DNA of 64,000 bases. It comes from Isurus oxyrinchus (lineage: Eukaryota). Positions 11,372 to 61,460 of this stretch are shown here, piece by piece. The translations under genes and the position numbers were made by a program. The notes beneath the pieces are model-generated. The model worked only from the letters and a program-made list of their open reading frames with translations, did not search any database and was not told where the DNA came from. How positions within the stretch are numbered: position 1 is the first letter of the stretch; each line of letters starts with the position of its first letter. The DNA is taken from assembly GCA_026770705.1 (NCBI GenBank), contig JANJGN010000011.1:149916001-149980000 (forward strand), written 5' to 3'.

Positions 11372-12631
11372 TGTTATAGTGTGAAGTTTATAAGATTATT
11401 ATATTTTGGGACTGTACTTTTAAATTTGGGGAGGGAGGTCATGTGACCTGTTCTGAATTACATCTGACGGTAAGCCTGGGAGGTTTGATTGTTAGAGATC
11501 AAAGAAAGGCTTAGATTTTTTTACTGGAAAGGAAGTGAAGGTATTTATGCTTGGAGATAATGGCAGCAGTCTGAGTTTACAATTAGACTGAAAGTCTCCC
11601 AAAGTTACAGAAATGTGTTGTTGGTGTCAGGTTGTAAACAGTTGTGCTGTGAACTGTCTATTTACTTCTAAGATGAAAGGGAGTTGGGATTGAGAATAGC
11701 TAATTAGCATTTAAACCTGGCTGTAAGGTTAATATGTTTCACATTGTCATGGGGAAGATGCAGAGGCAGCTATTTTTGAGATTAGGTTACAGGCTTCCTT
11801 GCACATCAGGGAATATCACGGACAGACAGCAGAGGTTCTGTGTGGTGAACAGGGAGAAAAGGCTGCTTGGCTACCTCTGCCAGATGCGGGGAGTGGGGAG
11901 ATGGTCTCTAGTCGAAGAGATGGATCCTGCAGCCATTTAAGGATCATGAGAGATTTGTAGTGGCATGGCCAGGGGCAAGAAGAATCATCGGAACAGGTTT
12001 TATTGCCAATGTCGGATTTAAGGAGCTCCGGAAAACCGAGGAAAGCACATGGAGACGATCACCTGAAGCTACTACTCGACAAGACAGAGATACAGAAACT
12101 CATTGGAAGCTGGAGCTATTGTGGACTGTTTCCTCGAAGGACTGTAATTCAGTGGAGAGTGCAATGGGTGTTGAGTATAAAAGGGGAACATCATTTTCCA
12201 TAGTTTAAAGTATAAATTGCCTAAGAAAAAGAAAATAGGGTTTAGCTATTGTGTTTTTTATTATAGATGAAAAGCAGAAAATGCTGGAAAAACTCAGCAG
12301 GTCTGACAGCATCTGTGGGGAGAGAAACAGAGTTAACGTTTCGAGTCCGTATGTGAGTCTTCAGAGCTCTGAAGAGGAATCATACAGACTCAAAACATTA
12401 ACTCTTTCTCTCTCCACAGATGCTGTCAGACCTGCTGAGTTTTTACAGCACTTTCAGTTTTTATTTCAGATTTCCAGCATCAGCAGTATTTTGCTTTTAT
12501 CTTAGTGATTTTTATGAATTATTTGTTACAGTAAAAGTTTTAAAACATGAAATCTTTGTGTCAATCTTTGGGCTAATAAATAGAAGTTTGAACCTCTTTA
12601 AAAGTTATCTGTCTTTCTGGAGCTCATAACA
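11372..12631 (+). mobile_element. Solo LTR (Gypsy/ERV-like)
   Basis: TGTTAT...ATAACA termini, perfect 4-bp TSD CTAT (11368-11371 and 12632-12635). Interrupted by the Penelope mini-palindrome. Confidence 0.82.
12265..12502. mobile_element. Palindromic Penelope-derived mini-element (two inverted 3' ends, degenerate hammerhead on each strand)
   Basis: Dyad centre TCTTCAGAGCTCTGAAGA (~12358-12375). Arms match the 3' terminus of the 46.9-50.1 kb element. Nested inside a solo LTR. Confidence 0.85.
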
Positions 12632-17242: not shown

Positions 17243-18445
17243 TTTTTTTAAAAATCATACATGGAATGTGGGCTTCGCTGGCTGGGCCAGTAATTATTGC
17301 CCGTCCCTAGTTGCCCTTGAGAAGATGGTGGTGAGCTGCCTTCTTGAACTGTTGCAGTCCATGTGGTGTAGGTACACCCACAGTGCTGTTAGGGAGGGCT
17401 TTCCAGGATTTTGACCCAGCGACAGTAAAGGAACAGGGATATATTTCCAAGTCAGGATAGTGAGTGACTTGGAGGGGAGCTTCCAGGTCCTAATATTCCC
17501 ATGTATCTACTACCTTTGTCCTTCTAGATAGTGCTGGTCATGGATTTGGAAGGTGCTGTCTAAGGAGTCTTGGTGAATTCTTGCATTGCATCTTGTAGGT
17601 GGTACACACAGCTGCTACTGTGCATCAGTGGTGGAGGGACTTAATGTTTGTGGATGTGGTGCCAATCAAGTAGGCTGCTTTTTCCTAGATGGTGTCAAGC
17701 TTCTCGGGTGTTGTGGGAGCTGCACTTATCCAGGCAAGTGGGGAGTATTCCATCACACTCCTGACTTGTGCCTTGTAGGTGGTGGACAGGCTTTGAGGAG
17801 TCAGGAGATGAGTTACTCATCACAGGATTCCTAGCCTCTGACCTGCTCTTGTAGCCACAGTATTTATATGGCTAGTCCAGTTCAGTTTCAGCCCAATGGT
17901 AACCCCCAGGATGTTGATAATGGGGGATTCAGTGATGGTAATGCCATTGAACGTAAAAGGGCGATGGTTAGATTCTCTCTTGTAGGAGATGGTCATTGCC
18001 CGACACTTGTGTGGTGCAAATATTATTTGCTACTTGTCAGCCCAAGCCTGGATATTGTCCAGGCCTTGCTGCATTTGGACATGGACTGCTTCAGTAATTG
18101 AGAAGTTGCGAATGGTGCTGAACATTGTGCAGTCATCAGTGAACATGCCCACTTCTGACTTTGTGATGGAAGGAAGGACATTGATGAAGCAGCTGAAGAT
18201 GGTTGGGCTGAGGACACTACCCTGAGGAACTCCTGTGGTGACGTCCTGGAGCTGAGATGACTGACATCCAACAACCACAACCATCTTTCTTTGTGCTAGG
18301 TACGACTCCAACCAGTGGAGAGTTTTCCCATTGACTGCAGTTTTGCTAATTGATGCCACACTCGGTCAAATGCTGCCTTGATGTCAAGGGCAGTCACTCT
18401 CACCTCACCTTGGGAATTCAGCTCTTTTGTCCATAGTTGAACTTG
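17243..18445 (-). mobile_element. 5'-truncated CR1-group LINE (RT remnant)
   Basis: GVPQGSVLSPTIFSCFIN...MFTDDC and ALDIKAAFDRVWH RT motifs. The 3' tail is shared with the tRNA SINEs. Confidence 0.88.
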
Positions 18446-20558: not shown

Positions 20559-21141
20559 GAACAAAGAACAAAGAAAAGTACAGCACAGGAACAGGCCCTT
20601 CGGCCCTCCAAGCCTGCGCTGATCATATTGCCCGTCAACTAAAACATTTTGCACTTCCGGGGTCCGTAACCCTCTATTCCCATCCTATTCATGTATTTGT
20701 CAAGCTGCCTCTTAAACACCACTATCCGTACCTGCTTCCACCACCTCCTCTGGCAGCGAATTCCAGACACTCACTACCCTCTGCGTAAAAAACTTGCCCG
20801 CACATCTCCTCTATAGTTTTCTCCTCTCACCTTAAATCTATGTCCCCTAGTGATTGACGCATCCACCCTAGGAAAAAGCTTCTGACTATCTACTCTGTCC
20901 ATGCCACTCATAATTTCGTAAACTTCTATCAAGTCGCCCCTCAATCTCCGTCGCTCTAAAGAGAACAATCCGAGTTTCTCCAACCTCTCCTCATAGCTAA
21001 TAACCTCCAGACCAGACAGCTTCCTGGTAAACCTCCTCTGCACCCTCTCCAACACCTCCATATCCTTCTGGTAATGTGGCGACCAAAATTGTACGCAATA
21101 TTCCAAGTGTGGCCTAACCAAGGTTCTGTACAGTTGCAGCA
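20559..21141 (-). mobile_element. CR1 (HER1-like) LINE 3' fragment
   Basis: LYRTLVRPHLEYCVQFWSP...LERRRLRGDLIEVY, (AGAACAA)n tail, TSD TGAATTA at 20552-20558 and 21142-21148. Confidence 0.9.
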
Positions 21142-33104: not shown

Positions 33105-35270
33105 ATTATTGTTTCATGGGATGTAAGCATCGCTGACAAGGCCAGCATTTGTTGCTGCTCCCTAATGGCCCTTACCAAGTTGGTGGTGAATCGCCTTCCA
33201 GGACTGCTGTAGTCCATGTGGTGTAGGAAAACCCACCGTGCCGGTAGGAAGGGAGTTCCAGGATTTTTACCCAGTGATAGTGAAGGAATGACAATATAGT
33301 TCAAAGTCAGGATGGTGGGTGGCTTGGAGAGGAACTTGCAGATGGCATTGTTCCCATGTGTCTGCTGCGCTTGTCCTACTAGGTGGTAAAGTTTAGCAGT
33401 TTGAAAGGTGCTGTCGAAGGAGCCTTGGTGGTTTGCTGTATTGTATCTTGTATACACTGCTGCCAGTCTCTGCTGGCGGCAGAGCGAGTCAATGTTTAAG
33501 GTGATGGATAAGGTGTCAGTCAAGCAGGCTGCTATGTCCTGGATGGTGTTGGGTTTCTTGAGTGTTGTTGGAGCTACACCCATTCAGTCAAGTGCAGAGT
33601 ATTCCATTCCAATCCTGACTTGTGCCTTGTAGATGGTGGACAGGCTTTGGGGAGTCGGGGAGTGAGTCACTTATCACAGAATTCCCAGCCTCTGACCTGG
33701 TCTTGAAGCCACAGTATTTATATGGTTAATCCAGTTCAATTTCTGGTAATGGTAACAACCAGGATGTTGATGTTGGACGATTGAATAATGATAATGCCAT
33801 TGAATGTCAAGAGGAGATGGTTGAATTATTTCATGTTTAAAATGGTCATTGCCTGGTACATGTGTGGCAAGAATGTTACTTGCTACTTATCAGCCTTGAA
33901 TGTGCCCCAGGCCTTGGTGCATTTGGGCATGGTCAGCTTCAGTATCTGAGGAGTCTTGAATGGTACTGAGCAATGTGCAATCATCAGTGAACATCCCCAC
34001 TCCTGACCTTAAGATAGAGGGAAGGTCATTGATGATGCAGCTGAAGATGGTTGTGTGCCTAGCACACTATCCTGAGGAGCTCCTACAGCAAAATCATATA
34101 GCTAACATGATTGACCTCAAACAACCAGAACCATTTTCATTTGTGCTATTTATAACGCCAACCAGTGGAGAGTTTGCCATTTGATTCCTATTGACTTCAA
34201 TTTTGCTAGAGATCTTAAATGTTAAACTTCTGATAGCCAGTTGGTGAAGGAGGAGACCAGAAGTCAATCTTTACTCAGTTTAGATTTATTCAAAAAGTGA
34301 AACATTACGAGTCTTTAGCTGTTAAACCTATTCAAACCTCAGTGTTAATAAGTGTCCTTTATATGTGCTCAGATAATGAAAGCCCTCCACCTATTTATCC
34401 TTACCCTTCCTTTATGAAATTAACACTTGATGCCACTCTCTGTCAATTGCAGTCCATTTCACCTCACCTGTGATATTCAGCTCATCTGTCCATGTTTGGG
34501 TCTAGGCTGTAATGAGGTCTGGAGTAGAATGGCCCAGGGTGGAACCCAAACTGAACTTCAGTGAACAGGTTATTCCTGAGTAAGTGGCACTTGATAGTAT
34601 TGTCAATGACACCTTCCATCACTATGCTGATGATCGAGAGTATACTGTTGGGGCAATAACTGGCCAGATTGCATTATGAGGTCAAGACATATCAGGTCAA
34701 TTTTCAACATTGCTGTTTGATGGCAGTGCTGTAGCTGTACTAGCACAGCTTGGATAGTGGCATGACTAGTTCTGGAGCACAAGTCTTCAGTACAATAGCC
34801 GGGATGTTGTCAGGGCCCATAGCCTTTGCTACATCTAGTGCCTTCAGCCATTTTTTGATATCATGTTGAGCGAATCAAATTGGCTGAAGACTGGCATCTA
34901 TGATACTGGGTACCTCGGGAGGAGTTTCAGATGGATCATCCACTCGGTACTTCTGACTGATGATGGTTGCAAATGCTTCAGCCTTGTCGTTTGCATGGAT
35001 GTTCTGGGCTCTACCACCAATGAGCATGTGGGTATATTTGGAGCCACCTCTCTGGCTAGTTGTATAATTGCCCAGTACCATCCATGACTGGATGTGACAA
35101 GACTACAGAGCTTAAATCTGATCCATTGGTTGAGGATCACTCTTTTCTGTCTATCACATGCTGCTTCTGCAGTTTAGCCTTCATGTAGTCCTGTGTTGTA
35201 GCTCCACCAAGTTGGCATCTCATTTTTAAGCATACCTGGTGCTGCTCCAGATATGCTCTCCTACACTCTT
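33105..35270 (-). mobile_element. CR1-group LINE, same family as 17243-18445, decayed
   Basis: Collinear with 17243-18445 and extends upstream (DKAEAFATI.SQK.RVDDPS). Confidence 0.85.
34220..34425 (-). mobile_element. Short solo-LTR-like insertion within a LINE
   Basis: TGTTAA...TTAACA termini. Minus-strand TATAAA (~34360) precedes AATAAA (~34287). LINE sequence resumes on both sides. TSD imperfect. Confidence 0.6.
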
Positions 35271-37078
35271 CGTTTTTTCACTTTGATCTGTACATACGCT
35301 CTGTTTGATTGTATAATATACATCTGTGTAGCCCAACCATTACACATTCTTGATCCATTAGTGCTTCCATGTATTCTTAACTTAGATGTTTTAACAAATC
35401 ACCATACATGATGTTATGTCTCAGCCATTAACACTATGCATTATTTATATCGCGGTTTATAGGAGAAAATTCAGTGAAGAGTGAAGTGGCCCTCCTGCTC
35501 CAACAAATCTTGTAGCACTATTGGTGAACACAGAAAACCCAGTACCAAACACCTTATTACTGAAATACTCTAGCCATCTAAATCTGGAAGACTTGTTGGA
35601 ACTGGGTTTCCGGTTGAAATTGTTTGAACGTTTTACAGACGTTCTGCTCTGTGAGAACATTGTACGTTGAGGTGGGTTATGAAAACGTTAGGATGCTCAG
35701 CATTTAACTTGTACTTTTGTTGCTTAGTTTGAACCCAAATTGAATCAAGCCCAAACATCTGGCCCAATTCTTGGTGTACTCATTCTTAACTGGAACTCAA
35801 TAATGAGCTTTACATTTTAAGTAGGAAAGGGCCCCAAATTTGTTTTTTAATTAAGTTTAATTGAGCACAGAGTGAATGCGAGCTACACAGCAGTGTGAGA
35901 CTGAGATGCACAATTGGCATTTAACCACATCTACATTTTTAAAAACATGTACTTGTATTCTAGAAATGAGGTGAATTGGTATTTTCAAGCCCAGCACTAC
36001 AAAATTCCATCGACTCAGCCTTAGAAATGTACCTTACAAGGAGCACCCTCTACTGCACCATTGAGAGCATTTTCATTTTTAACACTGGTCAGCTTTTAAG
36101 GCCTTTGTGAATAAAATTCTCAATATAGTGGAGATTTGTTATGAATTATGAGTGGGCTGGTAGTATAAGTTCCTGCTCTGTCAGGATTGGGTTGTGATTA
36201 TATAGACTGTTTTTATTGGGGAGTTTTATAGCAGACAAATAGGAGAAATGTTCTTTATGTAGAACAGGATTCAAAAGCCAGCATCCACAAATGAAATGCA
36301 TTCCCTTTTTTGTCACTGCCACCCCAATTCCTCAGCATGAATGATGATAACATGTGTCACAATAGGAGTGAATTGTAGGCAAAGGGGTAGTTAAATGACC
36401 GCAATTTCAGAGGGCAAAGATCTATTTATTTTTGTTTGGCATTAATGCTGACAGAATTAAATTTCATTTTCAATCCCGTTGTGCCAAATGAATTACTTCC
36501 CACTGGGCTCTCAATGTTTTCCAACAGTGCTAACTGTGCCAGATGATCCAGATGTGCAATTTCAGACCGAATATCCTGATGCTGGAGAGGGATTGTGCAT
36601 GCACTTTGCAAGTGTACCGAATACCTTAGTCTGCATAAATTGGAAACGTTCTTCACTTGTATCTAGTCACTGTTACTATTTGCCATTTTTACAAAAGAAC
36701 AGAAAAAGAAAATTGCACAAAATAAACAGACAAGAAAATTGTGACAGTAACAAATTTAAAGTGACAAAAGATGCTGCCATTATGTTGTAAATAACAGGGA
36801 TCCATTCAACAAATTTCAGGATAATATGGTGAAAAGTTACATAAAGTATGCTAAGCACCATGATTCAGTGATCTCAAATGGCCTGGAGATGGCAACTATT
36901 GGTTTCCCTGCACTTGTGAAATCCTTATTCTCCTGTAAGATTTTTATCTGCACGTAGAGCTGCTCACAATTGCGGAAAGATAAAACTGTGCAAAGATCGT
37001 CACAACACTGGACCCTCACGCCTTGTTGTTGCACAGAGCTAAAGCAGATTCATTGGATTACCCAAATAGACACTGCTG

Positions 37079-37205
37079 AAGGGTCATGAGGACTCGAAAC
37101 GTCAACTCTTTTCTCCTCCGCCGATGCTGCCAGACCTACTGAGTTTTTCCAGGTAATTCTGTTTTTGTTTTAGATTTCCAGCATCCGCAGTTTTCTTTGT
37201 TTTCA
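37079..37205 (+). mobile_element. Single Penelope 3' end truncated at the hammerhead core
   Basis: AAGGGTCATGAGGACTCGAAACGTCAAC... followed by the family 3' terminus. TSD ACTGCTG at 37072-37078 and 37206-37212. Confidence 0.82.
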
Positions 37206-37553
37206 ACTGCTGTTATCTTGTTTAGCTTTATAATAGGGCCATTGTTTTCTGTATGAGAAGGGGTAAAGTGGTACGGTAGAACAATGATGAGCAAAGTTTA
37301 GAACCACCTTGGCTACTACAGCAGTGTCAATAATGTAGCAAGACCACCACAATATTTAATAGCATCAACTTTAGAGAGTTTCAATTGACCAAAGCGAGTG
37401 CTTAAATTCTGGTTTAAAAAAAAGAATGACGGTAGCCTCGCTGCTGCCAGTTAAAATAGCTTGGGATATAGGTGTCTTTTTTTTTAAAACATCAAGCAAC
37501 TTCTTGTTTGCAAGCAGAAAAATCCAGGGCAGCAACATGTACATGGCAGCACA

Positions 37554-37764
37554 AAAACAGAAATACCTGGAAAAACTCCGCAGGTCTGGCAGCATCGGTG
37601 GAGAAGAACAAAGTTGACATTTCGAGTCCTCATGACCCTTCAACAGAACTCGAAACGTCAACTTTGTTCTTCTCCGCCGTTGCTGCCAGACCTGCTGAGT
37701 TTTTCCAGGTATTTCTGTTTATGTTTTGGATTTCCAGCATCTGCAGTTTTTTGTTTTTATCTCT
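37554..37764. mobile_element. Palindromic Penelope-derived mini-element
   Basis: Inverted arms meet at ~37648. TSD ATGTAC(A/G)TGGCAGCACA at 37537-37553 and 37765-37781. Minus-strand hammerhead-like motif at 37612-37650. Confidence 0.9.
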
Positions 37765-37962
37765 ATGTACGTGGCAGCACATTGCTTATAATATCATGCC
37801 CCCATTAAACATATGTCAATTAACTGAAGCCATCTGAATACATCTTTTAGCAGGAAGTGAGCTCTTCTTGTCAGGGTAGTCTGCAATCATTGAACCATGT
37901 ACAGTGTGGTTATTGCTTGGAACTGTTGCTTTTCATGTCCAGCTCACCTTTGTGTAGACAGT

Positions 37963-43686: not shown

Positions 43687-45319
43687 GGTTCCGTCTGGAA
43701 GACAGGAAGGTATATATACTGGCTCCCTGGCTCCTTCATAAAATTATTTCATTTTTAAAATGAACAAAGGCTTTACCTTAACATGCCTGAGTAGCCATGA
43801 GTCATACCAGAGGAACGTCTAACCTTCAGAAGCCAGCATGGACCTTGTTACCCCTCTGTGCAGAAAATCAAATTCCAAAGAAATGCACCAACACCCTTTA
43901 CATTTCTTAGGCAGGGCTCTGGCCAATGGGGACGGAACCCTGAGGTACCCTGACTCCTCTTTTAACTCTGAAGATTCCAAACCTGGAAAATTACATTCTT
44001 TGTCCAACACCCAGGTGAAGAAGTGGGAGATATGTCACATGACCTCCCCAATGCTGCTAGAACCTGTAATATTGTTGTGTGGAACTGAACTTAGGCAGCC
44101 TACCATTCTACCACCTAACAGGTAGCAGCAAAAAGAGCTCTGTCCAGGTAAATTGCCTGGCCCTCATCCACACTGTGAACTACTAGAACATTGGAACTCC
44201 TGTTTCTGGGCCTGTAAGAGTAATTCATCTCAATGTGCCCTCTTCCATCGGGGAAGCCCTCACTTCTGGAAAGTGATCACCCTGCAACAGTGTCAGCCTG
44301 CAAACCGCTGGAGGAGTACACTATTTTGATTCTGGACTTTGAACTCCTGTGAAACCATAACTCTTATTTTTATCATGGTCTTGCCCTGTACCCTTTTCTT
44401 TCTCTTATCCCTCTTCTTTTGTATGGGCTGAACTTTCCTGTCGGTGAGCAGGGGGTGGGGCCCGCTTGCCGATGTGAGATGACATCGAGGGGGACCCCCG
44501 ACATCATCCCACCCCATTTAAATCTTCAGGAAGGTGGGGGCACAGCCAAATCAGCTGTGCGCCCGCTAACCTGTCAATGGCCAAGAGCCCCGGCGGGGAA
44601 TAGAAAAAACATGAAACCTCGTCCCGCCGCTGGATGAGGTTTCATGTAGGGATTTTAAAAGTTTAATAAAGTTTTAGTGTAATTTATGAACATGTCCCAT
44701 CTCATGTGACATTGCCACATGAGGGGGACATGTTAAGGATTTTCTTTTTCTATTTCTAATCGTTTTAAAAGTGTCAGCGATCTCCCTGAGACAGCACCTA
44801 GCCTCAGGAAGATGTGCGCTCTATCGTGCGCATGCGTGAAAGAGCACACTCTTGCTTTTGGGGAATACCTCGTCCCTCGTACCCCCCCCCACCCCGCCCA
44901 CACAGGGAGCGCATTGTGCTTCCCGCCGGACATCATGCTGGGTGGGCCTTAATTGGCCCGCCCACGTAAAATGGCGGTGGGGCCCACTTCTCCAGCAGGG
45001 ATCGGCTCCCCGCCCGCTGGAGATTAGGTCAAGCCTGCCCGCCCGACAGGCAGAAAATTCTGCCCTACGAGTACAAAAAGGGGCGAACGTTGTGAAACTG
45101 CTTCTTGCATTTTGCGTGTGTAAAATAAACCAACCCTTTCGAGTTTGCTGTGGGGTTATTGATAGAGGATTGGGTCACTCCAAACTGAAGGGCTGGGGGA
45201 AACTACACCACCGCTTATAAAGGGGGAAATCAATAATCAAAAACACCTTTCTGTTTATGGACAGGTAGTGAGAGGGGAAATCAGGGCTGTTTAAATTAAC
45301 CCCCCTCCTGTCTGTAACA
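43687..45319 (+). mobile_element. Probable solo LTR related to 50703-51750, interrupted by a Harbinger-like element
   Basis: 3' end gaaatcagggctgtttaaattaaccccc..cctgtc.gtaaca is shared with 51708-51750. ATAG on both flanks. Left terminus is degenerate and uncertain. Confidence 0.55.
44425..45065 (+). mobile_element. Harbinger-like family A element
   Basis: GGGCTGAACTTT...AAAATTCTGCCC with 3-bp flanks TAT/TAC. Collinear with 235-876. Confidence 0.82.
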
Positions 45320-46714
45320 ATAGCGAAAGATATTTTATTGGCTAACACGAGGTGCATTTCTATTGCAAGGTGCTTCACAGGAGTGTTATGTAACAAAATT
45401 GGACACTGGGCCACATAAGGAGACATTAGGACCAGTGACCAAAAGCTTGGTCGAAGAGGTAGGTTTTAAAGAGAGTTTTAAAAGCAGTAGAAAGATGGAG
45501 GGGTTTTAGGGAGGAAACATCACAGGTTGTATCTAAACCATGATGTTATTGAGCAGCGCGTCAATGCCTTTTAAAAACTCAAGTAGAACACACTGCAATC
45601 AATCAGCACTTTGGGCACATCACCCAGAATGGCAAGTTAGCATTAATAATACTTGGGTTATAAGTAACGTAATGGAACCTGTGTTTCGGCTAGATCTTGG
45701 GATAGATTTGCAGCACCTCTAGCATACTTTTCGTTGAATGTAACTATCTATTAGCTTTAGGTAAGTGAATTGCTTAAATTAGATACAGGGCAGTCATGCT
45801 GATTAGCTTCCTACTCTTCAACGCAATACGTTTAAAATCCTCATTTCAGTCTCCATCTTATTCCGCCTTGTCTCAATAACCTTCTCCAGTTTTCCATCCA
45901 CTCTTGCTTCATTTAGTTGTCCAAATCTGACACCACCTCTCCCCCTCCCACAACCAGTGAAGGCAGCCTTATCCCTACTACCTTGTATTCCTGATTGTGT
46001 CCCTTTTACCTCACAGATTCTCATCTCAAAACTCATCTTTATGGTCAAGGATTTGATTAACTTGCTTAACTGTGGAGCCAGAGCTCATCGCATGCTTGCT
46101 TATTCATTTTATGATCCATTTTTTTTATCTCGCCCCTCCCCCTCCTCCATCCCCATGCAAAGCACTTTGAGTCATAAAAATGTAAGCTGTTGGCAAATGA
46201 AATGTCTAGGCTGCAAAATGTGGTCTTGATGTGGACTGACAGATGGAAAGTTCTCAATTCGTGGGTTGAGGGAACTCTCGAGGCAGTGGGTTGGTGGCTT
46301 AAAACACTTACAAGCTATGTAACTTTCAATCTTTCAATTTAAAAGTAGCATAACTGCCTGTTTTGTAAGCTTTTGTAAATCACGCAGTAAATCAATGTTT
46401 TCCCACTACTGTCCTTTAAAGGTATTGGAGGTCGGTAGAGGCAGGTTAGTGGACGAGCTGTTCTGTAAAGCACCCCAGATTGTTTAGCACCTCTTGAAGT
46501 AGGCTTCTGTCTTTGTCATCTGGGCAGAATGTATCACTTGTTCGCTGCGGAACTCTGCCTCATTTTTGTTCCATGAAAGACAAAAATCTACCTCATTCAT
46601 TTAAGATAAGTAATTTGTTTGCTTGACAGCGCCAAGAAAAGAAGCAATATTTCTGGCACCAAGCTGATTTATTATGCACCGTTTCCAAAGATTGGTCCAT
46701 TTGTGTGTTTGTCC

Positions 46715-46812
46715 ATTTGTGTGTTTGTGTGTGTGTGTGTGTGTGTGGGGGGTGGGGGGGGTGGGGGGGGTGGTGTGTGTGTGGGGGGGTTGTGTGTGTC
46801 TGTGGTGTGTAT
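46715..46812. repeat. (GT)n microsatellite with G-runs
   Basis: gtgtgtgt...ggggggtggggggggtggggggggtgg. Confidence 0.9.
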
Positions 46813-47006
46813 TGCAGCCACTGCCACTTAGTGGTTGAGGAAGGGTTTGTATTGAAAATGGATAGTGCCCATGTTACCAAACTGGATCCGCACTCTCAGG
46901 TTCAATGTTATCAATCTTGCATAAAAGCAAAATACTGCGGATGCTGGAAATCTAGAACAAAAACGAAAATACCTGGAAAAACTCAGCAGGTCTGCGGAGA
47001 GGGATA

Positions 47007-47047
47007 CAGTTGATGTTTCGAGTCTGTATGACCCTTCATCAGAACTA
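47007..47047 (-). ncRNA. Minimal hammerhead ribozyme motif (inverted arm copy)
   Basis: Minus strand reads TAGTT-CTGATGA-A-GGGTC(ATACA)GACTC-GAAAC-ATC-AACTG. Stem III CpG is mutated (ACGT>ACAT). Confidence 0.75.
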
Positions 47048-50005
47048 AGACATATAGAAATGAGGTGAAATATAAGCTGGTAGAGGGGGGTGAGTGGGAA
47101 AGGTAGAGCTCGATAGGGAGCCAGTGATAGGTGGAGGCCAAGAAGAGACTGCCAAAGGTGTCACAGAATAAAGGACAAAGGGGTGTTGATGGTGGTGATA
47201 TTATCTAAAGGATGTGCTAATGGGGACATTAAGGGTAGAAAGCAGGACGAGCAAGTGGCAGATGGCCCTAGTGGGGGTGGGGTGGGGGGAAGGGATCGAA
47301 ATGGGCTAAAAGGTGGAGATGAAACAATGGATCGAAATAAATTTACAAATAGGAGGGAAAAGAAAAATATTTGTAATAATTTTTTTTAATTATTGGAAAA
47401 AGGGGGATCGGAAAGAGGGTGGGGATGGAGGAGAGAGTTCATAATCTAAAATTGTTGAACTCAATCTTCAGTCCAGAAGGCTGTAAAGTGCCTAGTCGGA
47501 AGATGAGGTGTTGTTCCTCCAGTTTGCGTTGAGCTTCACTGGAACAATGCAGCAGGCCAAGGACGGACATGTGGGCATGAGAGCAGGATGGAGTGTTGAA
47601 ATGGCAAGCGACAGGGAGGTCTGAGTCATGCTTGCGGGCAGACTGAAGGTGTTCCACAAAGCAGTCACCCAGTCTGCGTCTGGTCTCTCCAATGTAGAGG
47701 AAACCGCATTGGGAGCAACGAATGCAGTAGACTAAATTGAGGGAAGTGCAAGTGAAATGCTGCTTCACTTGAAAGGAGTGTTTGGGCCCTTGGACGGTGA
47801 GGGGGGAAGTAAAGGGGCAGGTGTTGCACCTTCTGTGGTTGCATGGGAAGGTGCTGTGGGAGGGGGTTGAGGTGTACAGGGTGATGGAGGAGTGGATCAG
47901 GGTGTTCCAGAGGGAATGATCCCTGCGGAATGTTGCCGGGGGGATGAAGGGAAGATGTGTTTGGTGGTGGCATCATGCTGGAGTTGGCGGAAATGGCGGA
48001 GGATGATCCTTTGAATGCGGAGGCTGGTGGGGTGATAAGTGAGGACAAGGGGGACCCTATCATGGTTCTGGGAGGGAGAGGAAGGTGTGAGGGCGGACGC
48101 GCGGGAGATGGGCCAGACACAGTTGAGGACCCTGTCAACCACTGTGGGTGGAAAACCTCAGTTAAGGAAGAAGGAAGACATGTCAGTGAAACTGTTTTGG
48201 AAAGTGACATCATCAGAACAGATGTGACGGAGGCAAAGGAACTGAGAGAATTGGATGGAGTCCTTACAGGAAGCGGGGTTTGAGGAGCTGTAGTCGAGGT
48301 AGCTGTGGGAGTCAGTAGGCTTGTAATGAATATTGGTGGACAGTCTATCACCAGAAATTGAGACTGAGAGGTCAAGGAACACGCACTATTCTCTCACTGA
48401 ACAATTTCTCCTTAAACTCATCTCACTTCCTCTAAATAAAAGGTGTGGCTATGGGTACCCAAATGAGCCCCAGTTATGTCTGTCTCTTTATGGGGTATGT
48501 GGAACATTCCTTGTTCCAGTCCTACACAGGCCCCCTCCCACAACTCTTTCTCCGGTACATCGATGACTGCTTCAGTGCCACTTCATGCTCTCGTCTGGAC
48601 TTGGAAAAATTTATTAATTTTGCTTCCAATTTCCACCCCTCCATCATTTTCACGTGATCCATCACTGACACTTCCCTTCCCTTCTTTGACCTCTCTGTCT
48701 CAATTTCTGGTGATAGACTGTCCACCAATATTCATTACAAGCCTACCGACTCCCACAGCTACCTCGACTACAGCTCCTCACACCCCGCTTCCTGTAAGGA
48801 CTCCATCCCATTCTCTCAGTTCCTTTTCCTCCGTTGCATCTGTTCTGATGATGCCACTTTCAAAAACAGTTCCTCTAACATGCCTTCCTTCTTCCTTAAC
48901 TGAGGTTTTCCACCCACAGTGGTTGACAGGGCCCTCAACCATGTCTGGCCCATCTCCCGCACCTCCACCCTCACACCTTCCTCTTCCTGCCAGAACCATG
49001 ATAGAGTCCCCCTTGTCCTCACTTAACATCCCACCAGCCTCTGCATTCAAAGGATCATCCTCCGCCATTTCCGCCAACTCCAGCATGATGCCACCACCAA
49101 ACACATCTTCCCTTCATTCCCCCCTGGCAGGTTTCTGCAGGATTGTTCCCTCTGGGACACCCTGGTCCACTCCTCCATCACTCCCTACACCTCACCCCCT
49201 CCCAAGGCACTTCCCATGCAACCGCAGAAGGTGCAACACCTGCCCCTTTACTTCCCCCCTCCTCACCGTCCAAGGGCCCAAACACTCCTTTCAAGTGATG
49301 CAGCATTTCACTTGCACTTCCCTCAATTTAGTCTACTGCATTCGTTGCTCCCAATGCGGTTTCCTCTACATTGGAGAGACCAAACGCAGACTGGGTGACC
49401 GCTTTGCGGAACACCTTCAGTCTGTCCGCAAGCATGACCCAGACCTCCCTGTCACTTGCCATTTCAACACTCCACCCTGCTCTCATGCCCACATGTCCGT
49501 CCTTGGCCTGTTGTAACGTTCCAGTGAAGCTCAACACAAACTGGACGAACAGCACCTCATCTTCCGACTAGGCACTTTACAGCCTTCTGGACTGAAGATT
49601 GAGTTCCACAATTTTAGATCATGAACCCTGTCCTCCATCCCCACCCCCTTTCCGATCCCCCCTTTACCAATAATTTAAAAAATTTTATTACAAATATTTT
49701 TCATTTCCCTCCTATTTTTAAATTTATTTCGATCTATTGTTTCATCTCCACCTTTTAGCTCATTTCGATCCCTTCCCCCCACCCCACCCCAACTAGGGCC
49801 ACTTGCTTGTCCTGCTTTCTACCCTTAATGTCCCCATTAGCACATCCTTTAGCTAATATCACCACCATCAACACCCCTTTGTCCTTTTGTCTATGACACC
49901 TTTGGCAGTCTCTTCTTGGCCTCCACCTATCACTGGCTCCCTATCGAGCTCCTCCTGTCCCACCCCCATCTACCAGCTTATATTTCATCTCATTTCTATA
50001 TGTCT

Positions 50006-50046
50006 TAGTTCTGATGAAGGGTCATACAGACTCGAAACGTCAACTG
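50006..50046 (+). ncRNA. Minimal type I hammerhead ribozyme motif in the Penelope 3' region
   Basis: TAGTT-CTGATGA-A-GGGTC(ATACA)GACTC-GAAAC-GTC-AACTG: intact core, stems I and II pair, palindromic ACGT stem III as in Penelope-like element (PLE) hammerheads. Confidence 0.85.
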
Positions 50047-50702
50047 TATCCCTCTCTGCAGATGCTGTCAGACCTGCTGAGTTTTTCCAGGTATTTTTGT
50101 TTTTGTTATCAATCTTGCAAGTGGATCTGAATGCTTTATTCTTACCAGAGTTGACTCATGCTGACCTGTACCTTAATAGTGTAATGCAGGGATATAACTA
50201 TAGTATTCTCCTTATGATCTGGTCCTGAGATACATGTCTTTTGCGCAAGTCCTTCTTCAAATCTCTCCAGTGGTGGACTGAGTTAACACTTGGTGGGACA
50301 AGGCTGACTTCATGCTGAATAAACATACAGAGCATAGTTTGGATCAGGTTCATTTTGTTCAATTAGTATGTCTTTCCATAATGATACAAAAGTAATACCA
50401 CATCCTCCGATCACTTTGTATGATTCCGACAAGCGATCTTCTCACTGTTCCTCCAGAACCTCTGACTTTCAGCCTCCCTAAAGCTTTTGTAGCTCTGAGT
50501 TTAGCAGCTCTTACAGATTCCCTTTGTTTCTAGGAGTCTGTCTCCACCCCTCTGCGTGCTGACATGAAGGGATGAAAAGCCTTTGCAACACATGTTGTTC
50601 CTGTGATCACCCTGACCAGTTAACAAATTCCTAGTTGTTCAGCCTATGGAGAAAGCATCTTCAATTTAGCATGCACATGATTTTTTAAAAACTTGAAAAT
50701 AC

Positions 50703-50783: not shown

Positions 50784-51750
50784 GTGTGTGTATATATATA
50801 TATATGAAATAGATATCCTCATGGCTAATTTCTAAAATTTTGCAAATTGACAAAGACTTTTAAAATGGCTGAAGCTATGTCTGTCTGTGACCCTCAAGCA
50901 ATCGGGGCTATTTGGCAGTCTCAAAGAAATTTGTACTTGTTATCTCTGAAGAGACCCTAACGACCCCCTGTGGGCTGCAGGGACCAAATTCAAAGGGAAC
51001 TATACATAGGCTTTCTACATTTCATAAGCCAGGCCTGGCCCACTGGTGCCAATTCGTCTACTAGGACAAAGGACACAGAGAAAAGGGTACACACCCTTTA
51101 TCAAAGCCAAAGTGGAGAGGTGGGAGTCACGTGACATGATCTCTCTAGCTGGTGGAACCAGTAGTATTGCCTTGTGGAGCTGCAAATCTCAGCCTGACAT
51201 CTTCCCATCTGCCAAGCAACAGCACGGAAAGGGTCTCTTTCCAGGTTTAAATGCCTGGCCCCATCTACACTGTTTCTACTGGAACTTCTGAATTACTGTA
51301 CCACCGCCTCTGTGTGCCTATCTCATCGTGGAAATCAACTCATTTGGAAAAGTGAATTATCCAGCATCAGTTCAGCCTGCTGACCTCTGTGACGGAATAC
51401 ACTCTGGACTCTGGACACACATGAAATAATAATTCTTTTCTCTGTGGTCTTTTCCCTGTAAACTTTCTTTCTCTATCCCTCTTTTACTGTATGAGAGGAA
51501 AGAAGGCAACATTGCTACCCTCCTCCCACGTTTGTATGTATGCAAACAAACTAACCTTCTGAGTTCATCCCACCTCGAGTTTGCTCTGGGGTTACTTTTA
51601 GAAACTGAGTTACACCATAACCAAGGGTTTGGGAAATACGCCATCACCTATAAAAGGGGAAATCAAAATCAGAACATCTTCCTATTTACGGACAGGCGTT
51701 GAGAGGAGAAATCAGGGCTGTTTAAATTAACCCCCATCCTGTCCGTAACA
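50703..51750 (+). mobile_element. Solo LTR
   Basis: TGTC...GTAACA, 4-bp TSD ATAC (50699-50702 and 51751-51754). Its 3' end is homologous to 45120-45319. Confidence 0.8.
50738..50805. repeat. (TA)n(TG)n(TA)n microsatellite
   Basis: Directly visible, inside the solo LTR. Confidence 0.95.
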
Positions 51751-51894
51751 ATACACTTTGCTTTTAAAAAAAAAATTAACAGTAACTCTTTTGTTTCCAA
51801 ATCCTTTCTTTGGAAAGTGATTGAATAAAAATCCTGATTTGTGACTTTTTGTTTACCTGCTAACAAAATCAGCTATATATCGTGAGACCACTAT

Positions 51895-52050
51895 TCCCAG
51901 CCATCTGTGGAGAGAGAGACAAGAGTTAATGTTTCAGGTCGTTGACCCGTCATCTTGAAAGTTCATCGATCTGAAACATTACCTCAGTTTCTCTCTCACT
52001 TGATGCTGTCAGGCCTGCTGAGTATTTCCAGCATTTTCTGTTTTTATCTG
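51895..52050. mobile_element. Older palindromic Penelope-derived mini-element
   Basis: catctgtggagagagagacaagagttaatgtttcag ... ctgaaacattacctcagtttctctc...gatgctg, inverted arms with the family terminus. Confidence 0.7.
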
Positions 52051-55231: not shown

Positions 55232-55784
55232 AATAGATAAAAGCAAAAAACTGTGGATGCTGGAAATCCAAAACAAAAATAAAAATACCTGGAAAAACTC
55301 AGCAGGTCTGACAGCATCTGCGGAGAGGAGCACAGTTAATGTTTCGAGTCCGTATGACTCTTCAACAGAACTAAGGAAAAATAGAAAAGAGGTGAAATAT
55401 AAGCTGGTTTAAGGGGGGCGGGGTGGGACAGGTCGAGCTGGATAGAAGGCCAGTGATAGGTGGAGATAACCAAAAGATGTCATAGACAAAAGGACAAAGA
55501 AAGGGTAGAAAGCAGGATGAACAAGGTACAGATAGCTCTAGTGGGGTTGAGGTGGGGAGAACGGATCGAAATAGGCTAAAAGGTAGAGATAAAACAATGG
55601 ATGGAAATACATTTAAAAATAATGGAAATAGGTGGGAAAAAGAAAAATCTGTATACATTATTAGAATAAAGGGGGATGGGAAAGGGGATGGGGATGGAGA
55701 AGAGAGTTCATGATCTAAAATTGTTGAACTCAATATTCAGTCCAGAAGGCTGTAAAGTGCCTAGTCAGAAGATGAGGTGTTGTG
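55232..55784 (-). mobile_element. 5'-truncated Penelope-like element inserted into a CR1 LINE
   Basis: Homologous to 46922-47510 (GIY-YIG C-terminus and 3' region with a hammerhead at 55333-55373). TSD TCCTAGTGAA at 55222-55231 and 55785-55794, and the CR1 sequence resumes across it. Confidence 0.9.
55333..55373 (-). ncRNA. Hammerhead-like motif with CUGUUGA core variant
   Basis: Minus strand reads TAGTT-CTGTTGA-A-GAGTC(ATACG)GACTC-GAAAC-ATT-AACTG. Confidence 0.65.
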
Positions 55785-57379
55785 TCCTAGTGAATCTCCT
55801 CTGCAGCCTCTCCAGTGCAATCACGTCCTTCCTATAGTGTGACGACCAGAACTGCACAAAGTACTCTAGCTGTGGCCTAACTAGCATTTTATACAGCTCC
55901 AACATAACCTCCCTGCACTTAAGTCCTATGCCTCGGCTAATAAAAGCAAGTATCCCATATGCCACCTTAACCACATTATCTTCCTGTGCTGCTGCCTTCA
56001 GGGCTCTATGGACATGTACACCAAGGTCCCTCTGATCCCCTGTACTTCCTAGGGTCCTACCATTCATTGTGTATTCCCTTTCTGTGTTAGTCCTCCCATA
56101 GTATGATTCTAGAGCCTTCTTTTTCTTACAGGTAAATGTTGCAGTTTTATATGCTAATAGGTAATAACATACAAATGAGAAAGTGAGGTCCTAGGGTGGT
56201 ACCAGTTGGTTATTTTTCTTTGGAATTTGTCACAAGTTATCAGCCCATCAACCAGGCAACTGCAACTTGAAGCTCAAACGTAAACTTACGAGGGTCTAAC
56301 TAAAGGCAAAATGCATATTCTGTACATGAACATATTTTTCCAATATTTTTTTCCCAGGATCTTACATCGGAATGTCAAAAACTCTCCCATATATATTCAG
56401 CTACTGGGAGAAGCAACAGGTTATACAGTAGTTACCGTCTTGGTATGTTTTGTTAGTATAGGTTAGGTTACGCATACCCTAGTGATGGGAGTATTTGATT
56501 AAGAGGGTCATATGTTCAACCATGGATCAGTCCCTGATTACCTGGTGAAACCCTGTTGGTAATAAGCAGTTTACTACGAGCAGTTTTTAAGTCAAAATCC
56601 TGGAACTCCCTCCCTAACAGCACAGTGGATGTACCTAAACCACATGGACTGCAGCAGTTCAAGAAGGGAGCTCACCACCACCTTCTCAAGGCAATTAGGG
56701 CTGGGCAACAAAAGTGCTGGCCTAGCCTACAATGCCCACGTCCCATGTAAGAATTTTTTTTAAAAACTAAACTTTAGTTCCTGGGCACTGATTGGAGGTA
56801 AGCATTGAGCATTTTATGTTCTTGTTTTGGCATTTGACTGTCCCAAAAGCATGGGTATTCATTGGCCAAAATTCTGGTCAATGCACAAATGCCCCTCAAC
56901 CATAAAGGAGCACCCAACCTTCACAGCCAGGGAACTTGTACTTCAATTTATTTTTTTCTTTATTATCCAAAAGGAAGCTAAGACACATCACCAGCCATTG
57001 CAAGGAACCTGAATTTGTGGGAGAGATTAACTGACATAATGGAAAGGGATGAAATTTGCAAACTAACTTAATTGTTCATTCCAACATTTTTACAAACTGC
57101 AGTCTAACTCGTACCTGTGTTGTTTCAGAATGTTGGACATTTTATCAGTTTCACTAATATTCCTGTTTAAAGATGGTTTAAACCAATATGTAAGGTTTAT
57201 TTATGTAGCAATTGAAATATTTTAGACAACACAGCTGTAATCAAGTTATTTATCAAATTTCCACCAATGTACTTGCTCTTCAGATATGCTCCTTTATTAC
57301 TTTATATTAGCTGATGTGTATTTCTGCACTTTTTATCTAAAATACTTAAGTGATTGTTATTTCTGTTTTATTTTAACAG

Positions 57380-61199: not shown

Positions 61200-61460
61200 G
61201 GAACACCACCACTTGCAAGTTCCCCTCCAAGCCACTCACCGTCCTGACTTGAAGATATATCACCGTTCCTTCATTATCACTGGGTCAAAATCCTGGAAAT
61301 TCCTCTCTCACAGCACCGTGGGTGTACCTACACCACAGGGACTGCAGCGGCTCAAGAAGGCAGCTCACCACCACCACCTTCTCAAGGGCAGTTAGAGATG
61401 GGCAATAAATGCTGGCCTAGCCAGCGACGCCTACATCCCGTAAATGAATAAAACAAAAAA
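61200..61460 (+). mobile_element. 3' end of the 17243-type LINE (another copy at 56590-56760)
   Basis: gggtcaaaatcctgga...ggactgcagcggctcaagaaggcagctcaccaccac...gatgggcaataaatgctggcc followed by an A-rich tail. Confidence 0.8.

Follow-up and report, generated by a model that had tools for sequence, protein, structure and literature searches.

Penelope-like elements (PLEs) typically carry an inverted, 5'-truncated copy adjoining their 5' end, often with a tail of 30–40 bp at one end (Craig et al. 2021, PMC8557442). Rotifer PLE units lie in target site duplications (TSDs) of 8–10 bp, and long tandem and inverted structures have been described for Pen3 and Pen4 (Arkhipova et al. 2013, PMC3846280). 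Form C of D. virilis Penelope possesses large inverted terminal repeats of variable size (Schostak et al. 2008, PMC2377424). The origin of these tandem and inverted structures is called unresolved in PMC8557442. Two biochemical or mechanistic accounts bear on the question. The PAc protein of a lizard (Anolis Poseidon; Frangieh et al. 2024, PMC11167929) cuts both strands of its target in vitro and extends them. It uses two start sites which bound the tail, is predicted to form a dimer, and has been proposed to act on a multi-copy mRNA template; insertion proceeds without a need for hammerhead cleavage, the later steps being unvalidated according to the same source. For L1, dual priming on two RNAs has been proposed, again unvalidated (Meyer et al. 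2010, PMC2837659).

Our literature search, which covered openly accessible papers, found no paper linking long PLE arms to two-template or dual priming, nor one treating such units in sharks. Three papers (PMC9977147, PMC6431247 and PMC6155905), a general description (PMC8969392) and two preprints (bioRxiv 2026.07.22.740005 and bioRxiv 2024.12.14.628481) had no further bearing on the question. The locus described here is a PLE insertion, old and dead, whose inverted copy and tail place it in a known kind and whose arms are unusually long. Short inverted pLTRs fit several models, and long arms narrow the mechanisms that are possible.

Two truncated Penelope copies within one target site duplication

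The window, that is, the whole 64-kb stretch of Isurus oxyrinchus DNA that was analysed, contains a long-armed, back-to-back Penelope insertion in which two 5'-truncated copies lie within one TSD; this is confirmed as a real structure. Self-BLAST of the window returned a single long inverted match, between 46956–48379 and 50107–48682 (1440 columns, 92.2% identity with gaps), and global alignment of arm against arm gave 1327 matches, 84 substitutions and 9 indel events (~94% identity, K2P 0.062). Both comparisons, which had been proposed in an earlier sequence-only reading of this DNA, recovered the inverted arms. The substitutions comprise 53 transitions and 31 transversions, with 24 of the 84 in CpG context. 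The differences are evenly spread, the longest identical run being 83 nt (P=0.27), and a search for an excess of identical runs as a sign of gene conversion between the arms found none.

Reading from the left, the unit begins with a 16-bp TSD copy at 46906–46921 (forward strand), repeated perfectly at 50104–50119 on the same strand, as the sequence-only reading had it; the 16-mer occurs twice in the whole window and no more. Its first 4 nt also fit the tail-less element end and its last nt fits the tail end, so that the unambiguous TSD is 11 nt, a match expected by chance at one place with a probability of ~6e-7. The duplication is A/T-rich (11/16). A 34-bp PLE tail follows at 46922–46955 (reverse strand), on the left arm only, and then the left arm itself (46956–48379, reverse strand), a 5'-truncated copy carrying RT motif 7 (FLD), thumb, Zn-linker, GIY-YIG and 3' UTR/pLTR. 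An inversion junction of up to 9 nt (48380–48388) separates it from a stretch at 48389–48681 (forward strand), an additional 5' portion of the right arm in which the RT motifs GxAMG and YIDD lie. The right arm proper (48682–50103, forward strand), likewise 5'-truncated, has a tail-less terminus, its match to the element reaching 50107, 4 nt into the TSD.

The spacer of about 300 bp of RT sequence postulated earlier is thus borne out: 302 nt lie between the arms, with both motifs in frame with the right arm. The proposed mirror relationship between 46922–~48380 and ~48681–50103 holds from 46956 onward, and 46922–46955 is unpaired. What the earlier reading overlooked is this one-sided tail, which is the mark of a canonical PLE unit. 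The 34-bp tail belongs to the left arm alone and the ~300-bp RT extension to the right arm alone; since each arm holds sequence absent from the other, neither is a plain copy of the other. The insertion is also bracketed by a ~180-bp direct repeat, 80% identical, at 45139–45322 and 51575–51753, 6.4 kb apart.

The spacer and right arm share one frame (48388–49245) with 61% identity to a whale-shark protein (P0002, tblastn), and the match to this protein continues through the endonuclease in both arms. Each arm starts at the FLD motif and proceeds through thumb, linker and GIY-YIG into 483 bp of UTR/pLTR, beyond which it holds 943 bp of coding sequence; the suggestion that the arms duplicate the RT thumb and GIY-YIG coding region was therefore correct. 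The insertion as a whole corresponds to residues 482–886 of an 889-aa relative of RT/GIY-YIG type (P0005), the 5' half being absent. The left-arm frame is interrupted by one stop and by frameshifts, that of the right arm by several stops and one frameshift. In the Pfam search the RVT_1 profile matched weakly in the spacer (E 0.009, under the cut-off), and a GIY-YIG endonuclease remnant was detected at 49328–49624, forward strand (E 9.3e-05, 23.1 bits vs a cut-off of 22.6).

RT motifs followed by GIY-YIG, in that order, form the domain layout of an EN+ PLE. Between the two domains a C-X4-C-X2-C linker lies at 49217–49243 (forward strand, from the translation), and it is also present in the left arm; by the definition given in PMC8557442 it is of Neptune/Nematis type. 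By eye, and judged against the description in the same source, both arms show the CCHH motif of the endonuclease, with CxxC before YIG and two later histidines. The Penelope/Poseidon clade is defined by absence of a CX2-5CxxC linker, which is present here, and the linker would mark the element as Neptune/Nematis type rather than Poseidon. The three named best protein matches come from a ray and two sharks, as would suit a cartilaginous-fish host; no named PLE reference element is among the hits. RT motifs, GIY-YIG, tail and TSD agree with the PLE identity assigned in the sequence-only reading.

Both arms were also scanned for a pattern that we take to be that of the hammerhead ribozyme. In the right arm a minimal type I hammerhead-like motif with an intact core is predicted at 50007–50045 (forward strand), having the core, a bulged base, a 5-bp stem II, a 4-bp stem I and a palindromic stem III. 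Its counterpart at 47008–47046 (reverse strand) has a G to A change in the stem III palindrome; its stem II appears in the fold. The minimal form is described in PMC4209133. Rfam returned no hammerhead in the window, its sole match being a chance miRNA (E 0.58). Folding gave z values of -0.37 and -0.73 for the two hammerhead regions, neither significant, and of -0.06 to -0.73 over five stretches comprising these regions and the tail end, with no significant stability. A hammerhead at each outer end had been claimed: a core does lie near both, some 60–125 nt inside the element ends, and stem III is altered on the left. A possible ORF start, an ATG located 28 nt ahead of the predicted cut, falls within the hammerhead core, and its frame is open to the tail-less end at +94; the N-termini of 8 full-length relatives bear no resemblance to this frame.

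Family termini, junction and related units

Four public runs, the raw run X20 and three contig runs, were aligned to 46805–48690. The loose ends in X20 number 13,094 reads at 46921 (with tail) and 10,995 at 46956 (without tail), two termini 35 nt apart, and all three contig runs pile up at the same positions (46921/46956: 847/393, 866/373 and 899/405). A third pile in X20, of 8,230 reads at 46929, blurs any 1:1 ratio. Agreement among the tail-less loose ends is low (0.39), and their consensus hints that their count is partly inflated by a subfamily with a different tail start. The tailed and the tail-less end are the main termini of the family genome-wide, and they coincide with the outer ends of the unit, both of which are element 3' ends, as the earlier reading had maintained.

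Depth in the RT region is ~12,000 in 1.9 billion letters of X20, corresponding roughly to 19,000–29,000 copies if the genome is assumed to be 3–4.5 Gb. Reads at 90–95% identity are the commonest class in X20 (111,283 of 210,950). The arm-to-arm identity of 94% falls in this class, so that a common source of the arms does not follow from divergence alone. At 30 sites at which the left arm carries a letter other than that of the family majority, drawn from the best-supported 40 of 350 difference rows after exclusion of 9 spacer rows and 1 tail-boundary row, the right arm has the family letter in 25 cases, the same minority letter in 4 and a third letter in 1. This pattern is one of private decay upon a shared subfamily background. 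At site 47164 the two arms carry alternative family alleles (57:43), which says little alone.

In the aligned public runs the match of the family to the left arm stops at 48379 and that to the right arm starts at 48389, which leaves 9 nt in between; other family copies run on past 48379 and upstream of 48389. Within 48380–48388 we found no microhomology, no hairpin of at least 4 bp, no palindrome and no priming homology, nor do the junction letters repeat either outer flank. Five of them, CACTA, are also present 25–29 nt upstream in the family; the filler may therefore be templated, and chance is also possible. Run X1 contains joints which link antisense arm positions 47535, 47985 and 46994 to sense RT positions 48662, 48617 and 48590, at depths of 216, 254 and 110, all above single copy. 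Their resemblance to head-to-head junctions of other family loci is a hint only, drawn from 15 joints seen among 1,686, and the two with stated sides have just 21 and 26 nt.

Seven other related PLE-end insertions lie in the window, four of them single-armed. Two are miniature head-to-head units with the tail on the right arm only: one at 12264–12500, with a 16-nt central palindrome and no convincing TSD, and one at 37550–37760, within a 17-bp TSD with 1 mismatch (37537–37781 including TSD), whose tail-less end, like that of the focal unit, reaches into the TSD, here by ~3 nt. A weak two-armed unit at 51902–52049 has neither tail nor TSD that we could find, and 0/2 of its arms match their partner best. 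The single-armed copies comprise a tailed copy of a related subfamily at 55238–55788 (75% to the left arm, probable 10-bp TSD), two short tailed ends lying tail to tail ~160 bp apart (1460–1574 and 1734–1845), and a further short tailed end at 37073–37203, the last three with no convincing TSD. The copy at 55238–55788 adjoins another repeat, also found at 20728–21031, and the window holds besides a 1.1-kb direct repeat of 75% identity (17260–18348 and 33115–34208) with shorter relatives at ~56600–56770 and 61200–61450. In the three clear two-armed units (the focal unit and the two miniatures) exactly one arm is tailed in every case, and 5/6 arms match their partner best among 12 arms of several subfamilies, one being tied.

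As to the flanks, the left one (46805–46867) is covered in run X1 of organism A (depth 36.7) and in 0/3 runs of organism B, which holds much of the right flank. Only two organisms, ~2% apart by word share, matched the right flank, and they probably separated after the insertion took place. The search showed neither an empty site nor an orthologous locus; left-flank coverage is confined to run X1, and absence from the organism B runs proves nothing.

Origin of the inverted arms

Based upon this geometry we consider it fairly probable that one event produced the unit, with both nicked strands priming reverse transcription, probably on two copies of the template, whether two RNAs or one multimeric RNA. 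One TSD encloses both arms, which favours the single integration event proposed earlier. The GIY-YIG endonuclease would have nicked both strands up to 16 nt apart. Given 3' overhangs at such a staggered cut, extension of the top strand yields the left arm and extension of the bottom strand the right arm. To judge from the geometry, synthesis from the top-strand end would have begun at the site that includes the tail and yielded the 1.46 kb of the left arm. Synthesis from the bottom-strand end, which has 4 nt in common with the tail-less terminus, would have begun 34 nt further in and yielded the 1.72 kb of the right arm; priming at both nicks would in this way leave one arm with a tail and one without. 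The two cDNA ends would then have been joined end to end, host repair likely filling in the second strands, and the arms probably decayed independently afterwards by ~3% each.

The number of template copies is constrained by the length of the arms. They extend ~940 bp past the UTR/pLTR and into coding sequence; the inverted arm therefore cannot derive from the pLTR that lies upstream in a pLTR-ORF-pLTR transcript, and a second RNA, a multimeric RNA or one stretch copied twice is needed. Such an arm, together with a tail on one side, speaks against both upstream-pLTR copying and simple snap-back. The templates may have been a pair of RNAs on a protein dimer or a single multimeric read-through RNA, alternatives which the sequence does not separate. 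Of the suggestion that two RNA templates were primed at two staggered nicks, priming at the two nicks is thus retained as the best reading, and two RNAs are not told apart from one multimeric RNA. We would advance only tentatively the narrower proposal that the unit is the footprint of dual priming, in which a PLE protein dimer extended both nicks on two separate RNAs to give two first strands and no second strand. Against a transfer from PAc counts the fact that PAc is of the Poseidon clade, the present element having a linker of Neptune/Nematis type. The argument formerly offered for two templates, that minimal hammerheads act as dimers, is weak: the published dimer joins tandem copies (PMC4209133), and hammerhead mutants leave in vitro insertion of the lizard element unaffected (PMC11167929).

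Several other routes to the same structure have to be weighed. Both nicks might have primed on a single stretch of one RNA, with the first cDNA displaced by the second RT. Copied twice in this manner, one RNA would give the same geometry, the same asymmetry of the tail and the shared subfamily letters (4/30 sites), and the tail-less start does fall within the part that synthesis from the tailed start had already copied. This route nevertheless requires that a strand be displaced over ~1.4 kb and that the displaced cDNA survive, for which we found no PLE precedent, and L1 twin priming on one RNA gives an internal deletion and no long duplication (PMC2837659); we regard it as unlikely. The earlier reading had also raised snap-back copying of the cDNA. 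The tail cannot arise by copying of the right arm, nor the spacer by copying of the left, so that snap-back in its simple form fails and is disfavoured: each arm has private sequence, and neither hairpin nor priming homology marks the junction. A left-only tail plus a right-only spacer could arise only with an extra cut and deletion: a tailed cDNA of ~1.76 kb would have folded back as template for its own copying, a cut at the tail boundary would have trimmed the copy, and the centre of the palindrome would later have lost ~300 bp. Long perfect palindromes tend to lose their centres, which counts for such a central deletion, and in favour of snap-back stands also the palindrome in the middle of the 12264–12500 unit. 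Furthermore, self-priming has been proposed for palindromic PLE inverted junctions, on an antisense template (PMC3846280), as has endonuclease resolution for the tail (PMC8557442). This elaborated course is nonetheless improbable in our view, as 48380–48388 shows neither palindrome nor homology and RT start sites account for the tail directly (PMC11167929).

Two independent insertions, the second landing inverted exactly at the 5' end of the first copy, would be compatible with an arm divergence typical of the family, with the very large size of that family and with the failure to see an ortholog. Set against these points are the single TSD around both arms, junction letters which repeat neither outer flank, the one tail per unit in 3/3 clear units and the partner-best subfamily matches of 5/6 arms, and we hold two insertions to be quite improbable. 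An assembly fold-back artefact, or a product of later recombination, is highly improbable. Among the reads and contig pieces listed, none spans the junction or the whole unit, which would suit an artefact. The arms, however, differ by 84 substitutions and 9 indels, evenly spread, most of the listed left-arm changes are private, and chimeric reads would not produce a TSD and a one-sided tail. The earlier opinion that diverged arms make an artefact unlikely is accordingly sustained. Priming from both nicks is the preferred reading. Dual priming, if true, would bring the inverted pLTR and the one-sided tail under a single rule, and two-RNA use could be tested by counting in a family of roughly 20,000 RT-bearing copies or more.

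Comparison with known systems

The architecture is already known, and the mechanism has already been proposed for another element, L1. Like the canonical EN+ PLE unit, the present one has a head-to-head copy with 3' ends outward, a 34-bp tail at one end, a TSD around the whole unit and a hammerhead motif in the pLTR. Unlike it, there is no direct upstream pLTR, no full ORF, and no palindrome or overlap at the junction. Arms of 1.43 kb contrast with the 181–218-bp pLTRs of the rotifer PLE units, and a TSD of up to 16 bp with the 8–10 bp of the rotifer examples in PMC3846280. The inverted repeats of D. virilis form C, as described in PMC2377424, flank a partial tandem with a full ORF, whereas the present unit has two broken copies, each truncated within the RT; by linker motif, moreover, D. 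virilis Penelope belongs to a different PLE clade.

The locus resembles PAc in its two 3' termini bounding a tail and in its AT-rich target, and the ATG in the hammerhead core lies 28 nt before the predicted cut here and 26 nt before it in PAc. In the available part of PMC11167929 the account of PAc does not derive inverted arms from priming on two strands. An L1-type twin-priming product was considered and rejected: L1 twin priming is described as giving an inversion whose pieces do not overlap, along with an internal deletion and ends of poly(A)/poly(T), whereas here 1.43 kb is duplicated and there is no poly(A). As in L1 twin or dual priming, both nicks would prime, two inverted pieces fall within one TSD, and the junction may lack microhomology. 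With the dual priming proposed for L1 (PMC2837659) the locus would also share the use of two RNAs, which we infer here, and it is useful as a test case for that mechanism, proposed but unvalidated in L1.
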